Virus record (IMG/VR): IMGVR_UViG_3300035670_000069
Span: 32,001 to 96,000 of that record
Source: a virus
Direction: 5' to 3' (one strand)
DNA: 64,000 nt
In this document: piece after piece, positions 34,334 through 64,000 of the stretch
How positions within the stretch are numbered: position 1 is the stretch's first letter
How the letters are laid out: each line of letters begins with the position of its first letter
Position numbers and translations under genes: made by a program
The notes under the pieces: generated by a model
The model's database searches: none
The model's input: only the letters and a program-made list of their open reading frames with translations
What the model was told of the DNA's origin: nothing

Positions 34334-34342
34334 TGTTATAAT
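34334..34342 (+). promoter_or_regulatory. extended -10 TGtTATAAT
   Basis: immediately after M23 stop. Confidence 0.55.
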
Positions 34343-36464
34343 GTCTTTGTATGGAAACATGCATTGGAGAAAGGAAATTAAACATAACTTATTTAGAATA
34401 ATTCTTTCAGTTATATTTGCGCTAGGGTGGACATTTTCAACGGCATCTCAAGCAGATTCTGACTCATTAATACAAGCGTATGAAGATATTCAACAACTAC
34501 AATCAGATATCAATAAATTAAATGACAAGGCAAAAACTCAAGAATTATTAGATATAGCAATAGATAAGTATAACTATGCAGTACAGTCAAAATATAACTT
34601 AGAAGAATCTGAACAAGAATATAATACGGCGGTAGAGCAGGAGTCCTTGGCATTAGAGGCTAAAACTCTTGCTCTATCTGCTGTAGATGGTCAAACAGTT
34701 ACTGTGGCTACCGCATTAGAAGATAAGGATCAAGCATTACAAGATAAAAATAATGCACAGGATCAACTTGATATTGCCAATATAAATCTTCAGACGACAC
34801 AATTGACAATTCAAAACTCAGGAAATCAAGGATGGCAATTTACAGCCTATACCCTTAACAGAAGTGGTGATTTTGCTTATGCTGGAACAGCATATTGTTC
34901 TGGTGTAATAACACAGGCATATCAAGGTATGCCAGTATGTGGCAGGTATGAAAACTTATTTGTGGTTTATTCTGGAAAAATAACAGCACCTGAAGGTGTT
35001 AACTTGGTTTCTTTTGCAGGGTATACGGATGATGGATTTAGAATGTATGTAGATGGTCAATTGGTTATTGATCAGTGGGTAGATCAAGGATCAACATGGA
35101 GTCCATATTATTATCATACCTTTACAGCCGAAGATAGGGTTATAGATGTAGTATTTCATTATTTTAATGGTGGGGGTCCAGGTGTATTTCATGTAGGATG
35201 GGGGCATAGTGGTATCTGGACTGGAGTAGCCTCAAGTGCAATGTCTTATGGACAAGGAGCAACACAGGCACAGATAGACGCATACAATCAGGCTGTATCA
35301 GATCAAGCCCAGGCACAACAAGACTATAACTCTATGGCTGAGATTTATAATAATAAACTATCTTATTACAATGAACAGAACTCTATATTATTAGCATACC
35401 AACAAACTCTTTCTGAGGCAGAAGCAAACCTAACACAGGCTCAAGAAAGCCTAACACTTGCATTAGAAAACCTTACACAAGATCAAAATGAATATGAGGT
35501 TTCAATACCAGACATGCAGCAAGCAATACTAAATGCTCAAACTGAGTATAACAAACAATGGCAATTTGAAGAAAATCAAAGGGTGGCTGCAGCAATTGCA
35601 CAGGCTATAGCAAACCAGCCACAACCAATGCCAGAGCCAGAACCAATCCCCACGCCAGAAGAAAGTACACAGCCAACTCCAGAGCCAACCCCAGAGACAG
35701 AGCCAGAACCTTCCATAGAGCCTTCACCAGAGCCTACCCCAAATCCTGAGCCATCGCCTGAGCAAACAGAACCAGATTTCCCCAATCCTCAGCCAACCGA
35801 TCAAACAGATGATGAATCATCCGTAACTCCAGACCCTGAGCCTGAGATATCTCCAGAGCCTCAGCCAGAGCCAACACCTCAGCAAACGGATATAGATCCT
35901 CTTCCCACTCCAAGTCCTCAACCAGAGAAATCTCCCGTAGCACCTTCTCCAAAACCATCACCACCTAATAATACCACCATTGACTTAACTAGCGTTATTG
36001 CTAACCTAACTAGCAAAGATAATATTATTGTTAAATTAACACCAGAACAAATGTCTGCTGTTGGTCAATCTTTGACTACCCTGGCTCCAGAGGCTAAGGT
36101 TGAACTAGCACAAGATCTTGGAGTAAAGACAAATGAGATAGCAATACTTGCAGAAGAAGCACAAGATAATCCTGCAGTCGCTGCTGCCATCGTAACATTT
36201 GCTGAAAAGGCAGAGGAAAACGCTGATGCTCCTATGCCATATACAATTGCAGACGCTATTACTGAGGCTGCTGCTGAGTTATTTTTAGAGGATCCCTTGG
36301 CGGTATTTAATAATATAGATTTAGAAGAATTATCTGACCCTACTCAATGGGGCAAAGATATGACAGATGATCAGAGAGAAAAGGCACAAGAGGTAATTGT
36401 TCCAGTTATTCTTGTTTCTAATATAATTTCTTCTGTGGCTTCTGCGTTAACAAGGAGGGTATAA
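34341..36464 (+). CDS. secreted coiled-coil / PA14 / Pro-rich protein
   Basis: signal-like segment, PA14 motifs TDDGFRMYVDG..VIDQW and FNGGGPG, PE/PT-rich stalk, hydrophobic C-terminus; start uncertain. Confidence 0.7.
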   Translation: MSLYGNMHWRKEIKHNLFRIILSVIFALGWTFSTASQADSDSLIQAYEDIQQLQSDINKLNDKAKTQELLDIAIDKYNYAVQSKYNLEESEQEYNTAVEQESLALEAKTLALSAVDGQTVTVATALEDKDQALQDKNNAQDQLDIANINLQTTQLTIQNSGNQGWQFTAYTLNRSGDFAYAGTAYCSGVITQAYQGMPVCGRYENLFVVYSGKITAPEGVNLVSFAGYTDDGFRMYVDGQLVIDQWVDQGSTWSPYYYHTFTAEDRVIDVVFHYFNGGGPGVFHVGWGHSGIWTGVASSAMSYGQGATQAQIDAYNQAVSDQAQAQQDYNSMAEIYNNKLSYYNEQNSILLAYQQTLSEAEANLTQAQESLTLALENLTQDQNEYEVSIPDMQQAILNAQTEYNKQWQFEENQRVAAAIAQAIANQPQPMPEPEPIPTPEESTQPTPEPTPETEPEPSIEPSPEPTPNPEPSPEQTEPDFPNPQPTDQTDDESSVTPDPEPEISPEPQPEPTPQQTDIDPLPTPSPQPEKSPVAPSPKPSPPNNTTIDLTSVIANLTSKDNIIVKLTPEQMSAVGQSLTTLAPEAKVELAQDLGVKTNEIAILAEEAQDNPAVAAAIVTFAEKAEENADAPMPYTIADAITEAAAELFLEDPLAVFNNIDLEELSDPTQWGKDMTDDQREKAQEVIVPVILVSNIISSVASALTRRV
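35615..35965 (+). repeat. low-complexity PEP/PTP/PSP repeats
   Basis: repeated ccagagcc units. Confidence 0.75.
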
Positions 36465-38647: not shown

Positions 38648-40045
38648 ATGAGAGACATTCGTAAAGCCTTTATTGTAACCTTTTCAATATTTTTGCTATA
38701 TATCTATACACCACAATCACTTGCCAATGATAATATCAATTACTCTTTTACAAAAAAGCCTTGTTCTAAAAATAAACTAAATACAATAGTAAAAAATAAA
38801 ATATGCCTAAAGAATGGAAAGGTTTATAGATGGGCTGTATTAGATAATAAACAATCCGTTTCTGAGACTAATTCAGTTGATAATATGTCTCCAAAACATT
38901 ATTACGATACTAATTTTTTAAATTATAACGAGTGCAATGTTAACTTTCCTTATTGGGAAAATAGAGATGGTAGATTTAATTCTTCTTATAAAATTAAAGT
39001 TATACCATTTCAAACAGAGGACTATAAATCTTCTAAATCCCCTAAAGAAGAATGGGGTGAATTTTTTACATATTTTCACCAGACATTAAAAAACCTTTCA
39101 GATGTTAAAACAAATCATGTTATTGATATTGAAAATAAATATATTGATTTACCAATTAATCTAAAATCATTGGATCTAGGCTCAAAGTATGACCATGGAG
39201 ACATTAGCGTAAGGCCTCGTACTACTAAACTATTTAGCCTTGCTGTACAAAAATTAGATCCCGATATTGATTTTTCTAAATATGATGCCATTTGGCTGGT
39301 TCCACCAATATCTGTACCGACAACAGTTTTATCTAATTTTATTATTGAGGGGCCAGTTTTAACACAGGGAAAAAGATTTATGGTTGGTCTTTATTTAGGT
39401 TCAAGGCCTAATGATTTTTTTGATAAGGGAATAGATAATAAAAGTTTGCCACTAATAGTTCATGAATGGCTGGTTCATGTTACCAGTAGTTTAGATGATA
39501 CATATGGAGATATGCATTATTATAATGGCGTCGGCAATTATGGGACAGGGCTATGGTCAAATACTTCTAACTTTTCAGTAGATTTTTTAGGTTATAATAA
39601 ATGGCAACTTGGAATGTTAAGCAACTCACAAATAAGTTGTGTGGACAAAAATAAAACTTATTTTGTTTGGTTAAACCCACTACAGTCGACGAACACATCA
39701 AATAAATTGGGAATAATAAAAGTTGACAAATATGTTGCAATTACTATTCAATCTATGAGATCTTTAGGTTACAATTATAAGTTGCCAATAAACCAAAATG
39801 GTGTTCTTGTTTCTGAAATTAATACAGAAAAAATGTATGATAATAATGTTCATGGAGATGGACAATATGTTATATGCCCGAACAGAGGCAATGAAGCAAA
39901 AATTCATGGTGGTTGCAAAACAAAAGAATTATATGATGCAGCACTTAAACTAAATGAAACAGTATCGTATAAAGGTTACAAAATAACTGTTGTTGATTCT
40001 GGAGATTTTGGAGATGTTGTTAAGATAGAATATATTGGTCTGTAG
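38648..40045 (+). CDS. secreted M6/InhA-like metalloprotease-like protein
   Basis: signal peptide, C..C...YRW module, DPDIDFSKYD, HEWLVH..LDDTY, YNKWQLG, GVLV. Confidence 0.6.
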   Translation: MRDIRKAFIVTFSIFLLYIYTPQSLANDNINYSFTKKPCSKNKLNTIVKNKICLKNGKVYRWAVLDNKQSVSETNSVDNMSPKHYYDTNFLNYNECNVNFPYWENRDGRFNSSYKIKVIPFQTEDYKSSKSPKEEWGEFFTYFHQTLKNLSDVKTNHVIDIENKYIDLPINLKSLDLGSKYDHGDISVRPRTTKLFSLAVQKLDPDIDFSKYDAIWLVPPISVPTTVLSNFIIEGPVLTQGKRFMVGLYLGSRPNDFFDKGIDNKSLPLIVHEWLVHVTSSLDDTYGDMHYYNGVGNYGTGLWSNTSNFSVDFLGYNKWQLGMLSNSQISCVDKNKTYFVWLNPLQSTNTSNKLGIIKVDKYVAITIQSMRSLGYNYKLPINQNGVLVSEINTEKMYDNNVHGDGQYVICPNRGNEAKIHGGCKTKELYDAALKLNETVSYKGYKITVVDSGDFGDVVKIEYIGL

Positions 40046-40107
40046 TTCAATGGCAGAACAATCGGCTGTTAACCGATGGGTTGTAGGTTCGAATCCTACC
40101 AGACCAG
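40036..40107 (+). tRNA. tRNA-Asn(GTT)
   Basis: acceptor tggtctg/cagacca, anticodon arm atcgg-ctGTTaa-ccgat, T loop ttcgaat; no encoded CCA. Confidence 0.95.
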
Positions 40108-40111
40108 CGAA

Positions 40112-40120
40112 TGCTATAAT
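40112..40120 (+). promoter_or_regulatory. extended -10 TGcTATAAT for tRNA-Asp/ssb
   Basis: 8 nt before tRNA-Asp. Confidence 0.7.
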
Positions 40121-40128
40121 AAAAGTAA

Positions 40129-40202
40129 GGTCCGTTAGTTCAGTTGGTTAGAACGCTACCCTGTCACGGTAGAGGTCGTCGGTTCAAGTCCGATACGGAT
40201 CG
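40129..40202 (+). tRNA. tRNA-Asp(GTC)
   Basis: acceptor ggtccgt/acggatc, ctacc-ctGTCac-ggtag, T loop ttcaagt. Confidence 0.95.
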
Positions 40203-40245
40203 CTCACCAAATTGGTGAATTATAAATCGAGGAAGGGAGTTCAAA

Positions 40246-40599
40246 TTGAACCCTAAGATAACACTAGTTGGTCGTATTGGACAGGAACCAGAAGCAATCG
40301 GCACTGGTATTCGTTTCAGAATGGCCACAAACGATAGAGTAAAAAATGAAAACGGAGACTGGGAAGATAAAGATACTTCTTGGTTCACTGTTAAGGCTTG
40401 GAAAACTTTAGCAGAGCATTCAAAAAATAACCTTAAAAAGGGTAATGAGGTAATAGTTGTTGGAGTTATGCGTGAAGAAAATTGGACAGATAATGAGGGT
40501 AAAAAGAGAACATCTTTTGAAGTAGTTGCTGAGTCAATTGGAGTTACAACAAAAACTTTAAACAAAAATACTTCTGCACAACCAAGTAATTGGTTATAA
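40246..40599 (+). CDS. ssb: bacterial-type single-stranded DNA-binding protein
   Basis: ITLVGRIG..PE, FRMATN, TSWFTVKAW..LAE, LKKG..VIVVG; TTG start; no acidic tail. Confidence 0.88.
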   Translation: MNPKITLVGRIGQEPEAIGTGIRFRMATNDRVKNENGDWEDKDTSWFTVKAWKTLAEHSKNNLKKGNEVIVVGVMREENWTDNEGKKRTSFEVVAESIGVTTKTLNKNTSAQPSNWL

Positions 40600-40610
40600 C
40601 TAGTAGTATT

Positions 40611-40682
40611 GGCACTATCGTCTATCGGTTAGGACATCGCCCTTTCACGGCGAAAAGACGGGTTCGATTCCCGTTAGTGCTA
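40611..40682 (+). tRNA. tRNA-Glu(TTC)
   Basis: acceptor ggcacta/tagtgct, tcgcc-ctTTCac-ggcga, T loop ttcgatt. Confidence 0.95.
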
Positions 40683-40683
40683 C

Positions 40684-40755
40684 GCCTCCTTAACTCAGGG
40701 GTAGAGTACCCGCCTTGTAAGCGGGTTGTCGTAGGTTCAAATCCTACAGGAGGCT
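40684..40755 (+). tRNA. tRNA-Thr(TGT)
   Basis: acceptor gcctcct/aggaggc, cccgc-ctTGTaa-gcggg, T loop ttcaaat. Confidence 0.95.
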
Positions 40756-40776
40756 CGAAGGGTGTATAATTAAAAT

Positions 40777-55922: not shown

Positions 55923-56162
55923 ATGTATACTACAAAAATGTCAAAAGCCTTTAGGTCTTTAGATCATTTTTGCCCAAAAGGATTCCAAGTAGAATTAATA
56001 GACAATGAACATTTTATTACCATCCGTGCTTCTGAAAAATCCTTCATGTCTTTACTTGACACAGACAAGAGACGTGCTGTAGAATATATGGTAAGGGTTA
56101 AAAAAGCCCTTGAAGACAATGGCGCCATTGTTTTGTTAGTTCGTGAAGGCGGTAAAGAATAA
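55923..56162 (+). CDS. hypothetical protein
   Basis: 79 aa, own promoter. Confidence 0.6.
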   Translation: MYTTKMSKAFRSLDHFCPKGFQVELIDNEHFITIRASEKSFMSLLDTDKRRAVEYMVRVKKALEDNGAIVLLVREGGKE

Positions 56163-56659
56163 TGCAAACATTCTTAACATCTACCAACAGTCTTGAATGT
56201 GCACAAAATCTTGACAATAAAAGATTAAACAAGCAGATACTTGAAGGCTATCAAATTCTTAATGTATTATCTGGCAGATCAAAGACTGGCGGATGGCGTA
56301 ATCATCCTGCTGTGCTTATGTGGAAAGGTTATGAACATGGACTTTGGTCATATATTGAAAGCATGGTACAAATTGCTAATCTTCGTGGCATTAAAACAGA
56401 AAATAATGTAAAGAATTTAAATGCTTTATATGCAGAGTGCTATGAAGACTGGGGTAATGAGCATCCAGCGTTTTGGCGGGATGATAATAAAATAATGCGT
56501 ATCATTACTACTCACCGTGCTAATCTATTTAAAAAAGATCCACTTTACTATGCTAAGTATCAATATGCAGTAAATAGCCCACATAACGTTCCTTGCTGTC
56601 CAGATCGTAAAGAGCCTTGCAAATATTATTGGCCAACACATGAGGTCTCTAATGCTTGA
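56162..56659 (+). CDS. pyrimidine dimer DNA glycosylase / DenV-like (MSMEG_6728 family)
   Basis: MQTFL, LDNKRLNKQILE, GWRNHPAVLMW, THRANL..KD, YYWP. Confidence 0.85.
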   Translation: MQTFLTSTNSLECAQNLDNKRLNKQILEGYQILNVLSGRSKTGGWRNHPAVLMWKGYEHGLWSYIESMVQIANLRGIKTENNVKNLNALYAECYEDWGNEHPAFWRDDNKIMRIITTHRANLFKKDPLYYAKYQYAVNSPHNVPCCPDRKEPCKYYWPTHEVSNA

Positions 56660-61217: not shown

Positions 61218-61338
61218 AAGACACGATAAGTTTAACCCAATTCAAATTAAAGATGGAATGGTTGTTCGTCTAAGAAAAGATGGAACTATAAAAGCAATAC
61301 TTGGTAAATATGGAGAATACAAAAAAAATACTAAATAA
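61198..61338 (+). CDS. 46-aa basic protein (absent from ORF track)
   Basis: MSSGKYKRHDKFNPIQIKDGMVVRLRKDGTIKAILGKYGEYKKNTK; fills the gap before the convergent gene. Confidence 0.55.
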   Translation: MSSGKYKRHDKFNPIQIKDGMVVRLRKDGTIKAILGKYGEYKKNTK

Positions 61339-62110
61339 TTTTAGAAATTTTGCCATCAATTACTATACAGCAATTTCCAGGTAATCTTTCATTGTTTTTA
61401 ACAAAATCATATAAATACTTTAATGTTCCCCTAAACACAGATTGTGGATGACCATAATCTTCTGAAGTTAAATTATACATCAAAACGGCCTTTCTGTTTT
61501 CTCCAAATGTTTCCATTGCTTCTTCCATTAATTCAAAAATGTGATCGCTATATGGGCCAGGTAAATCTGGTATAACATTTCTTTCTCTGTTTTTAATTAA
61601 AAAAACCATTGGGTTAACTCTATTTTTTAACTCTTTCCATTCATGGCCTCTGTCCCAACTATCAAAAGACAAAAACCCTTCAAAAGAAAATTTATGCAAA
61701 CATCCAGCAATAGCAACAGCAGAAAGTACAACTGAAGGTCCAGGTGTAGCATATATATTTATATCATTTTTTATTGCTTCTCTTATTAGAAGTTCTCCTG
61801 GATCTGCTATTCCTGGCATTCCCTCATCAGAAACTAAATAAACATCTTCTCCATTTTTTAAAATATTTATAATTTTATCTAAATTTTCTAACTCTAAAGA
61901 TTTTCCTGGCTCTCCAGCCAAAGAGACATATTCGATTGGGATTAATTCTCCAGTTGGATTTGGCGCATTAAATTTTTTTAACTGATCAAATAAAATATCT
62001 ATCTGCTCTACAACTAAATATTTTGCTTTTTGTATAGACTCTATAAAAAATGGCGATGCATCTTTTTTATTTCCGATTGGCCCACCAACTATGTACAAAG
62101 TTCCGCTCAT
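61331..62110 (-). CDS. rsmI: RsmI-like tetrapyrrole-methylase-fold SAM methyltransferase
   Basis: GTLYIVGGPIGN..D, LVSDEGMPGIADPG, PGPS, FSFEGFL. Confidence 0.8.
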   Translation of the reverse strand: MSGTLYIVGGPIGNKKDASPFFIESIQKAKYLVVEQIDILFDQLKKFNAPNPTGELIPIEYVSLAGEPGKSLELENLDKIINILKNGEDVYLVSDEGMPGIADPGELLIREAIKNDINIYATPGPSVVLSAVAIAGCLHKFSFEGFLSFDSWDRGHEWKELKNRVNPMVFLIKNRERNVIPDLPGPYSDHIFELMEEAMETFGENRKAVLMYNLTSEDYGHPQSVFRGTLKYLYDFVKNNERLPGNCCIVIDGKISKII

Positions 62111-62190
62111 TAGTATATATATCCTTTAGGTTTTTTTAATTCTTTTTTAATTTTTCTAATTAAAAGCCACTGTTTTATTTTTTTAATCAT
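62110..62190 (-). CDS. 26-aa basic micro-ORF
   Basis: MIKKIKQWLLIRKIKKELKKPKGYIY; overlaps upstream stop and is TAATG-coupled to rsmI. Confidence 0.5.
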   Translation of the reverse strand: MIKKIKQWLLIRKIKKELKKPKGYIY

Positions 62191-63199
62191 GTTCTATCCA
62201 TCCCCTTTTTACTAATTGGTCATAATATTGTTCTGCCCAATCATTCTGTAATAATCTTCCAGGATGTCTATCTCTAAAACTTATATCATCATGTTTTAGG
62301 GTGAGTCCATTTTTTATAACGTTTTGTGCCAAGTCTGTAGCAGATACTGGCTTTAAATAGAAAAAGGTTTCTGTAAATAAACTTGAACAATGTATATTGA
62401 TTGACTCTATATAATGCCAGGTAGTCCATAATAATTTTGTACCTATTGAATTGCAATACTCTTGAAAAAGCATCATGGCAGTTAGAAAAACTGGAAAATG
62501 AACTCTGTGCATTTGCAGATCAGATTCTTCATAGTTAGTTTTTATTACATTATCTCCATATGGAACTTTTTGATGATATATCCAATCACTTTCCCAAAAC
62601 CTTAGTATATTTGGCATATGAATTACTAATATATCTGGCGCTCCATAATTAACCACGTATTCTCTAAAATTATGTACAATCTTATGCCAGCCACTTCCAC
62701 CCCTACCTAAATTATAATATCCACTAACATTATTTTTTTCTTTAATTTTATTGTATAAGATATGGCTCCAAGTGTCTTCTATGTTTCCCCCAACCCCTTC
62801 TGTGTTTGAACATCCAGAAAAAACAATATGTAGCCCGTCATGGTTTTTAGAAAATTCGTCACATCTAAACCAATCAGAGTTATACTCATATCTAACTTTC
62901 CATGTTTTTCTATCTTCTTCTATATAAGATAACTCAGGAGGAATAAAATCTAAAACATGCTTATTGTTTTCTAATCTATAATTTGTCTCATGCCCCAAGA
63001 TATCTATTATTTCTAAATTTTCTCGTCCCATATAGGCAGCCTCAGCCCACGTTCTATCAAAAGTATAAAATGGCAATGATAAAAAATTTTGATAATTAAT
63101 TATATATGGTGATCTGGAATCTTTAGAATAAACAGAATGTGATTGAGAAATATCATTAAAATTTGATTCACATAGCCTTAAATAATCATCATGCTTCAT
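62183..63199 (-). CDS. SGNH/GDSL-like protein, paralogue of 46531
   Basis: NSDWFRCDEF, FSGCSNTEGVG, NLGRGG, DRHPG. Confidence 0.55.
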   Translation of the reverse strand: MKHDDYLRLCESNFNDISQSHSVYSKDSRSPYIINYQNFLSLPFYTFDRTWAEAAYMGRENLEIIDILGHETNYRLENNKHVLDFIPPELSYIEEDRKTWKVRYEYNSDWFRCDEFSKNHDGLHIVFSGCSNTEGVGGNIEDTWSHILYNKIKEKNNVSGYYNLGRGGSGWHKIVHNFREYVVNYGAPDILVIHMPNILRFWESDWIYHQKVPYGDNVIKTNYEESDLQMHRVHFPVFLTAMMLFQEYCNSIGTKLLWTTWHYIESINIHCSSLFTETFFYLKPVSATDLAQNVIKNGLTLKHDDISFRDRHPGRLLQNDWAEQYYDQLVKRGWIEHD

Positions 63200-63893
63200 T
63201 GTTTTTCCTTATATATATATCATAAAATCCTAAATTATGCAATGCAATTGCATCTACAGACCAATTTTTATTTTTATCTAAAAACTCATTCACTGTTTGA
63301 AAAGTCCCGTATGGCATATCTTCAATTATACCATCATAGATTAGATAATCATTTAAACCTATAATGCCACCAACATCTACTAAATTGGCACAGTGTTTTA
63401 TACATTCCCTGGTTTGATATCTATCATTGCTAATATCAATATATATAAAGTCATATTTTTTATTTAAAGATGGAAGGATATCTAATGCGTCACCTTTGAC
63501 GGTGTTTACGTTTTTTCTATCTTTAAATAAATCAATTATATATTTTTCATGAGTTTCTGGTGTATATAAAAGTTCATGCTTAAAGCCTTCACACTGACAA
63601 CTGCCAAATTTTCTCCAAGACCAACATTTTAAATCTTGATTGTATAAGTCTAATAAGTCTGCCGATGAAGCATCAGATTCTTCTATAAACATTTTTGCCG
63701 AATAGCCCCAAGCAACTCCTACCTCTAAATACTTAATTCCCCTTTTTAGACTTTTAGCATATTCTTCTCTAGAACTAAAAAGTTTTGCACCCAATAATTG
63801 GTTTTGAGATATTTTTGGGCTATCCTCTATTTGATCATTATTGATAATTTTAATTTCGTTTTCATTAAATGGAGGAACTGGTTTTTTAGGCAT
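63189..63893 (-). CDS. class I SAM methyltransferase (Methyltransf_24-like)
   Basis: LEVGVAWGYSA, KGDA, YDFIYID, GGIIGLNDY. Confidence 0.85.
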   Translation of the reverse strand: MPKKPVPPFNENEIKIINNDQIEDSPKISQNQLLGAKLFSSREEYAKSLKRGIKYLEVGVAWGYSAKMFIEESDASSADLLDLYNQDLKCWSWRKFGSCQCEGFKHELLYTPETHEKYIIDLFKDRKNVNTVKGDALDILPSLNKKYDFIYIDISNDRYQTRECIKHCANLVDVGGIIGLNDYLIYDGIIEDMPYGTFQTVNEFLDKNKNWSVDAIALHNLGFYDIYIRKNNEA

Positions 63894-64000
63894 TTATGTA
63901 TTCCTTAAAATTAAATCACGACAGGATAAATATTTTGAATGCAAATCTTTAAAAATACTAAAAGAGTTTACCATTTCTTTTGCTTCATAATATACATCTG
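63894..64000 (-). CDS. 3' end of a truncated CDS
   Basis: open frame ...DVYYEAKEMVNSFSIFKDLHSKYLSCRDLILRNT-stop abutting the next ATG. Confidence 0.5.
   Translation of the reverse strand, partial: DVYYEAKEMVNSFSIFKDLHSKYLSCRDLILRNT

Follow-up and report, generated by a model that had tools for sequence, protein, structure and literature searches.

The window analysed here, a stretch of 64,000 nucleotides, is part of a complete 108,556-bp IMG/VR virus record with a GC content of about 34%. The record holds a single copy of a gene for an RsmI-derived class III SAM methyltransferase (positions 61331–62110 of the window, minus strand), as identified from its open reading frame, matches to Pfam PF00590 and TIGR00096, AlphaFold2/Foldseek comparison and residue tables. 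The open reading frame begins with ATG and spans 259 codons, and a Shine–Dalgarno sequence, AAAGGA (62122–62127, minus strand), can be read in the sequence 11 nt upstream of the start codon. Genes in the record run nearly all on the plus strand from 0 to 93.2 kb and leftward in the final 15 kb; the RsmI-like gene is the last of the leftward arm and closes a compact leftward block of ten genes that meets the rightward arm in convergent orientation. A scan for consensus promoters and terminators between 60.9 and 64 kb gave fewer sites than were found in shuffled sequences, and no terminator. The genome carries a WhiB gene (PF02467), and its DnaE polymerase is 55% identical to those of large Streptomyces siphoviruses; together these point to an actinobacterial host, and a WhiB-based scan of genome contigs did not find a close cellular relative. 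Elsewhere in the window are a cluster of four tRNA genes (Asn-GTT, Asp-GTC, Glu-TTC and Thr-TGT; 40036–40756, plus strand) and a gene for a DenV-like pyrimidine-dimer DNA glycosylase (56162–56659, plus strand; PF03013, E = 6e-18).

The genes upstream of the RsmI-like gene all lie on the minus strand. Separated from it by 72 nt is a gene for a 338-residue SGNH/GDSL-hydrolase-like protein (62183–63199), which is overlapped by 11 nt by a gene for a 234-residue cation-dependent (COMT/CCoAOMT-like) class I O-methyltransferase of the Methyltransf_24 family (63189–63893; PF13578, E = 2.9e-8; PF01596, E = 7e-5). The 3' end of a sulfotransferase-like gene follows (63894–64000); this gene leaves the window, encodes 222 residues and is complete at L052:5894–6562. 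The methyltransferase/SGNH operon proposed in the original prediction is present, with co-directional genes, the short overlap and gap, and a putative SGNH/GDSL fold. The fold assignment comes from an AlphaFold2 model of the 338-residue protein (pLDDT 85.7), for which all of the top PDB matches in Foldseek are SGNH/GDSL esterases, at weak significance (E of about 3e-5, TMt 0.4–0.6), and from the residues conserved in its family: G-C-S131 and H312 are invariant, G168 is conserved and D310 is nearly invariant, with a D-x-H rather than a D-x-x-H spacing. The protein has no Pfam match and its profile has no PDB match. For the Methyltransf_24 protein the best PDB sequence match, a weak one (4.6e-6), is TrmR, the tRNA ho5U O-methyltransferase, followed by CCoAOMT/COMT. 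The sulfotransferase-like protein belongs to a family of about 220–235 residues (c12; 11 distinct sequences) that has no Pfam match. Its alignment (A4) contains a PAPS-loop-like motif, I-N-S-x-P-R-S-G-H-x-W-L, and all 27 of the 27 PDB matches to the A4 profile are sulfotransferases, collinear over three segments, although the best E value is weak (1.3e-4). These sequence features suggest that c12 is a family of phage sulfotransferases that has so far gone unannotated.

Clustering of the open reading frames from 48 loci revealed a conserved leftward order of CDGSH protein, sulfotransferase-like protein, COMT-like O-methyltransferase, SGNH-like protein and, in terminal position, RsmI-like protein (clusters c10, c12, MT24, SGNH and RsmI-like). 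The SGNH-like family of about 340 residues is the direct upstream co-directional neighbour of 12 of the 35 distinct RsmI-like copies, in both subclades of the viral family described below; at four loci (L003, L006, L020 and L025) it occurs as two or three tandem copies directly upstream. Further upstream in the present genome lie the CDGSH Fe–S protein, another P4H-like oxygenase, a SAM decarboxylase and a second weak sulfotransferase match. The SAM decarboxylase (L052:7687–8214, minus strand; PF02675, E = 4e-15) shares the leftward block with three SAM-related genes. The other frequent neighbour, c3, is a family of 165–235 residues with no Pfam match (L015:4522–5184, L038:2600–3175 and 21 other loci; alignment A3) that often adjoins a second RsmI-like paralog. 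A relationship of c3 to the SGNH proteins was considered and rejected, as its invariant H-x-D...H-x-R signature is typical of 2OG-Fe(II) oxygenases, comprising the metal-binding triad and the 2OG-binding arginine; judged by this signature, c3 is a cryptic oxygenase family. Within 20 kb there are three more P4H-like oxygenases, a NodU/NolO-type carbamoyltransferase, three GT61 glycosyltransferases and a HAD fusion, and at some loci the island includes a trypsin-like protease. No obvious signal peptide could be read from the translations of the operon proteins, so a tailoring pathway made up of them is probably cytoplasmic.

Both of the RsmI motifs named in the original prediction were located in the 259-residue protein, V-G-G-P-I-G-N at residues 8–14 and S-D-E-G-M-P-G-I-A-D-P-G at residues 94–105. 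The protein matches the Pfam TP_methylase profile (PF00590) with E = 3e-14 and 53.9 bits (gathering score 27.8), residues 4–231 covering positions 1–209 of the 212 in the profile, which places it in the TP_methylase superfamily. The only NCBIfam models that it matches are the two for RsmI (best E = 6e-19), with scores far below both cutoffs. The score against TIGR00096 is 68.4 bits, some 100 bits below the equivalog cutoff of 167.9, so the protein falls outside canonical RsmI. Its alignment to TIGR00096 extends only as far as residue 170, in agreement with the diverged C-terminal half that had been noted beforehand.

An AlphaFold2 model of the protein (pLDDT 88.9, from an alignment of 39 sequences) has the two-lobed class III fold, and its top Foldseek matches are the RsmI structures 3KWP, 5HW4 and 9PZG (E of about 1e-18, TMt of about 0.85). 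CysG/SUMT structures follow about seven orders of magnitude behind (E of 1e-11 or weaker, versus 1e-18). CobA/CysG/SUMT and the borosin N-methyltransferases share the PF00590 superfamily and the overall fold with the phage protein, but as fold matches they are much weaker (E of 1e-11 to 1e-9, TM of about 0.55) and they lack the context of the RsmI metal triad. None of the cobA, cysG or cbi models in NCBIfam matched at E ≤ 0.01. An identity as a tetrapyrrole C-methyltransferase (CobA/CysG) was rejected on these grounds. Membership of another tetrapyrrole-methylase subfamily had been named in advance as the result that would speak against the proposed likeness to RsmI; the protein instead groups with RsmI in HMM comparison, fold and phylogenetic tree, and is a class III (TP_methylase) SAM methyltransferase with RsmI as its nearest relative.

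RsmI 2'-O-methylates C1402 of the 16S rRNA in the P site, a modification linked to the accuracy of initiation. A residue-level comparison was made against a study, published in 2026, that combined cryo-EM with mutagenesis of E. coli RsmI bound to the 30S subunit (PMC13037946). In that complex a Mg2+ ion held by E44, D92 and D100 contacts the 2'-O of C1402 and the next phosphate; E44 is essential for Mg2+-dependent catalysis and D100 for SAM binding. Helix 44 is unwound by a network comprising T19, P20, N23, D45-T46-R47, H68, F144/R174, K200 and R196/W202, in which F144 stacks on the next base and the K200A/E substitutions cripple the enzyme. Y103, H104, D137, K148, K150 and H173 contact h24a/h45, and a three-helix C-terminal domain of 42 residues, essential in E. 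coli, binds h23b (PMC13037946).

The phage protein and its viral clade were aligned with RsmIs using E. coli RsmI as the numbering reference. All 52 clade members retain the acidic triad (E44, D92 and D100, corresponding to E35, D95 and D103 of the 259-residue protein), the G-x-P...D-P-G SAM loop and F144. The G-x-P-I-G-N and S-D-x-G-x-P-x-x-x-D-P-G SAM loops, the T-P-G-P motif and the F-x-F/Y-E-G-F motif that includes F144 are likewise shared with RsmI. Strict conservation of the triad over 33–61% sequence identity argues for metal-assisted O-methylation and for purifying selection on catalysis. The contacts to the ribosome present a different picture. Only 28% of the tested h44 contacts are retained in the viral clade, compared with 83% in RsmIs and 80% in RsmIs that lack the C-terminal domain, and the 259-residue protein keeps only P20, N23 and F144 of the 12. 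Its replacements include K200 to S, R196 to Y, R174 to H and R47 to D. The residue at position 200 is lysine in 48 of 48 RsmIs and T, K or another residue across the viral clade, in which R47, K148 and R174 have become acidic or neutral and the EDTR motif (D45-T46-R47), H68, H173 and W202 are also replaced. Retention of the h24a/h45 platform contacts is 8% in the clade versus 39% in RsmIs; the 259-residue protein has none of the six, K148 being D here and D, N or E across the clade. A93, which lies beside a metal ligand, is E or D in all clade members, and E170/E227 are retained at 3% compared with 96% in RsmIs. A nearly invariant N174 could, from its place in the alignment, substitute for E170; the alignment around E170/R174 borders an insertion of 10–14 residues that is specific to the clade and follows strand 168–172, and it is less certain than the rest. 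Taken together, the residue tables and the structural model show a predicted SAM- and metal-binding catalytic core that is retained and ribosome-recognition residues that are lost.

The C-terminal three-helix domain is also missing, with only 0–1 residues past the equivalent of E. coli position 240. Its absence was considered as decisive evidence and dropped, because short proteins of 223–247 residues that lack the domain (for example P0153, P0120 and P0092) score 206–251 bits, above the RsmI cutoff, and keep essentially all of the 16S contact residues. These short RsmIs are similar in length to the phage proteins, which neither pass the cutoff nor keep the contacts. The discriminating evidence is therefore the loss of contact residues and not the absent domain. 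The net charge differs as well (−10 for the viral clade, −2.5 for RsmIs), but overall charge says little because E. coli RsmI is itself acidic (−7).

The family is recurrent within one group of viruses. A search of 5.8 billion proteins yielded about 55 clusters (at 90% identity) of 232–266 residues that are 33–61% identical to the protein, while ordinary RsmIs did not surface until about 30% identity. When 1.84 billion representatives were searched with a profile, 12 of them scored 215–352 bits, and after a sharp break came a plateau at ≤167 bits that consists of RsmIs of 274–300 residues. Homologs are present at 47 IMG/VR loci, many on contigs of 100–123 kb, while a scan of 185,579 species genomes for a clade-specific motif found no homolog. 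PHROGs contains no family for the protein and BFVD contains one viral protein with its fold, which fits the earlier remark that this is not a usual phage gene, yet the 47 viral loci show that it recurs in this phage lineage. Megablast of 9 kb of the window against a phage collection gave no match, and tblastn matches in that collection were at most 31% identical and looked like bacterial RsmI or contaminating host DNA. A literature search on phage tetrapyrrole methylases and phage RsmI found no description of this viral family. Proteins of the clade are named RsmI or '16S rRNA C1402 methyltransferase' by JGI pipelines; this label is probably an over-annotation. Clade members and paralogs score 65–91 bits against the TIGR00096 cutoff of 167.9.

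In a maximum-likelihood tree the viral clade is monophyletic (SH-aLRT 99) with a long stem of 0.85 substitutions per site and two subclades. When rooted on CysG it sits among the RsmIs, although its exact point of attachment is uncertain owing to the weakly supported backbone and a very long outgroup branch. Related complete phage genomes of about 100–120 kb carry one to three RsmI-like copies each. In some of these genomes a third, far more divergent TP_methylase copy is found at a distance from the island (G002:C1:69829–70413, G004:C1:112300–112911 and G001:C1:24448–25107), with scores of 38–74 bits to the clade profile. A 730-residue protein, P0082, has nine separate matches to the clade profile, all to the S-D-E-G-M-P-G region (profile positions 75–146), and is either a repeat protein of an unusual kind or a product of misassembly. 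No longer, fused forms of the RsmI-like protein were found, which is weak evidence.

Since the residues that grip the ribosome are nearly all lost and the gene lies in an operon of enzymes that decorate hydroxyl groups, the RsmI-like protein probably methylates something other than 16S rRNA. The presence of one to three paralogs in related genomes, compared with a single-copy rsmI, supports retargeting. We favour the reading, with a probability of about one half, that it is a repurposed metal-dependent O-methyltransferase of a hydroxyl- or glycan-tailoring pathway that acts on a substrate outside the ribosome, with a sugar in a glycan or glycoconjugate as the most plausible candidate. The residue losses and the operon context thereby favour the third option of the original prediction, repurposing within the methyltransferase/SGNH operon. 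In such a scheme the virus-specific RsmI descendant would bind SAM, hold a divalent metal by the RsmI acidic triad and transfer the methyl group onto a hydroxyl oxygen positioned by that metal, the apparatus for docking on the 30S platform and unwinding helix 44 having been lost. It would have been recruited among the hydroxyl-decorating enzymes of the phage operon (the CDGSH protein, the sulfotransferase-like and COMT-like proteins and the SGNH-like esterase or acyltransferase), and the hydroxyl that it O-methylates may be one of sugar type, carried by a glycan or glycoconjugate that is assembled in the cytoplasm of the infected cell and sits, for instance, on virion proteins. The shortest departure from a ribose 2'-OH would be the 2-OH of a furanose.

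Candidate acceptors are encoded in the same genome. A 239-residue, proline-rich, collagen-like protein with 14 G-X-Y triplets (G000:C1:81–800, equivalent to L053:81–800, plus strand) is a possible substrate of the P4H-like oxygenases of the phage. Two further proteins (window positions 34341–36464 and G000:C1:13045–14433, both plus strand) contain 30-residue tracts that are 67–70% Pro/Ser/Thr and could be linker or glycosylation regions. All three proteins could be acceptors of the modification. To our knowledge no class III methyltransferase methylates a glycan, so the glycan assignment rests on the gene neighbourhood. Against it, the island is hyperplastic and the neighbours need not cooperate, and the retained Mg2+-bridging residues and F144, as aligned, also fit a nucleotide or RNA substrate. 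The weak TrmR match of the Methyltransf_24 partner, which is to a tRNA enzyme, and the weakness of the sulfotransferase and SGNH assignments count against it too. A broader proposal is put forward tentatively, at rather less than even odds: that the RsmI-derived enzymes of aquatic actinophages form an unrecognised class of metal-dependent class III O-methyltransferases acting on a non-RNA hydroxyl. The substrate could then be a furanose or other sugar of a glycan to which the neighbouring enzymes also add sulfate and carbamoyl groups and add or remove acetyl groups, and the glycan may be displayed on hydroxyproline- or Ser/Thr-rich virion proteins.

Comparable islands have been described in other phages. 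Iyer et al. (2021; PMC7824862, section 3.4.10) reported cyanophage clusters of carbamoyltransferase, 2OGFeDO, HAD and O-methyltransferase genes, interpreted as serving polysaccharide decoration or secondary metabolism, and Cluster O mycobacteriophages (Corndog-type) carry a cassette of O-methyltransferase and glycosyltransferase genes with a proposed role in capsid modification (PMC4351075). The present island resembles the former in its carbamoyltransferase, 2OG-Fe(II) oxygenases, HAD phosphatase and O-methyltransferases; the descriptions in PMC7824862 and PMC4351075, however, include no RsmI-derived class III methyltransferase and no SGNH-like or sulfotransferase-like partner. RsmI itself differs from the family discussed here, which is virus-only, has one to three paralogs per genome and lies in an operon with non-RNA enzymes.

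Several other readings bear on the same evidence. The protein could be a ribose 2'-O-methyltransferase of RNA or a nucleotide with a new target, such as a tRNA of host or phage, a different rRNA site, transcripts of the phage or a signalling nucleotide. Defence ribonucleases need the 2'-OH for cleavage, and methylation of this kind could, for example, block them. The nearest family acts on RNA, and every clade member has kept all that RsmI deploys at the dinucleotide, namely the triad whose Mg2+ spans the 2'-O and the 3' phosphate, together with F144, which stacks on the next base. The phage carries tRNA genes, and the weak match of the Methyltransf_24 partner to TrmR is in keeping with this reading; a hydroxylase paired with an O-methyltransferase is the logic of mo5U synthesis. 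Two or three paralogs could serve different sites, and a prophage-encoded rRNA methyltransferase, reportedly on record, would be a precedent. We regard an RNA target as a serious alternative, though a less probable one than the favoured reading. Against it, four basic RNA-contact positions are lost or charge-reversed and nothing in the way of an added RNA-binding domain or fusion makes up for them, the viral proteins exceed RsmIs in acidity, and the conserved sulfotransferase-like, SGNH-like, carbamoyltransferase and GT61 partners have no known role in RNA metabolism.

A genuine RsmI that 2'-O-methylates C1402 of the host to tune initiation or P-site function during infection, as the original prediction suggested among its options, finds little encouragement in the residue comparison and appears very improbable. 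RsmI is the best and only family match, the catalytic residues are intact, the absent C-terminal domain is not in itself disqualifying given the short RsmIs, and the JGI pipelines assign this name. Set against this are the score of 68 bits versus a 168-bit cutoff and the replacement of K200, R174, R196, W202, K148, D45-T46-R47, H68, E170 and E227, with the helix 44-unwinding and 30S-docking residues changed clade-wide. Several of the replaced residues are proven to be necessary for C1402 methylation, the C-terminal domain is essential in E. coli, and RsmI is described as present in all bacteria (PMC13037946). With a further match of the RsmI family model to Corynebacterium glutamicum, an actinobacterial control, Cm1402 is to be expected in the host without any phage enzyme, and several paralogs per phage genome make little sense for one site. 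It is also improbable that the protein performs another class III chemistry, such as the transfer of methyl groups to N or C atoms of a peptide, protein or tetrapyrrole in the manner of borosin, Dph5 or CobA-type enzymes, or that it survives only as a SAM-binding remnant devoid of catalysis. The class III fold does support very different substrates, borosin and tetrapyrrole methylases appear among the weaker fold matches, the two glutamates that contact SAM via water in RsmI (E170/E227) are replaced, and the trypsin-like protease at some loci and the many P4H-like oxygenases are protein-modifying families. The fold and HMM likeness to those subfamilies is nevertheless much weaker than that to RsmI, and the RsmI-specific metal triad does not vary across the clade.

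If the favoured reading of a repurposed O-methyltransferase is correct, phages would have captured a universally conserved ribosome-biogenesis enzyme and turned it to a new substrate without loss of its metal-dependent O-methylation chemistry, itself a recent discovery, and the class III fold would be known to serve a wider range of substrates. The result would also flag a systematic mis-annotation, in that the approximately 55 clusters at 90% identity are named '16S rRNA C1402 methyltransferase' in JGI records. Should the target instead be RNA, the family would represent a new phage strategy of RNA protection or translation control. Should it be a sugar, the tetrapyrrole-methylase fold would gain its first member directed at carbohydrates, and an elaborate phage-encoded glycan-tailoring system would be indicated. 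Under the favoured reading the gene would also offer a way into the hydroxyl-tailoring island of abundant aquatic actinophages, which is large, conserved and as yet uncharacterised and comprises oxygenases, an esterase and transferases of sulfo, carbamoyl, methyl and glycosyl groups.
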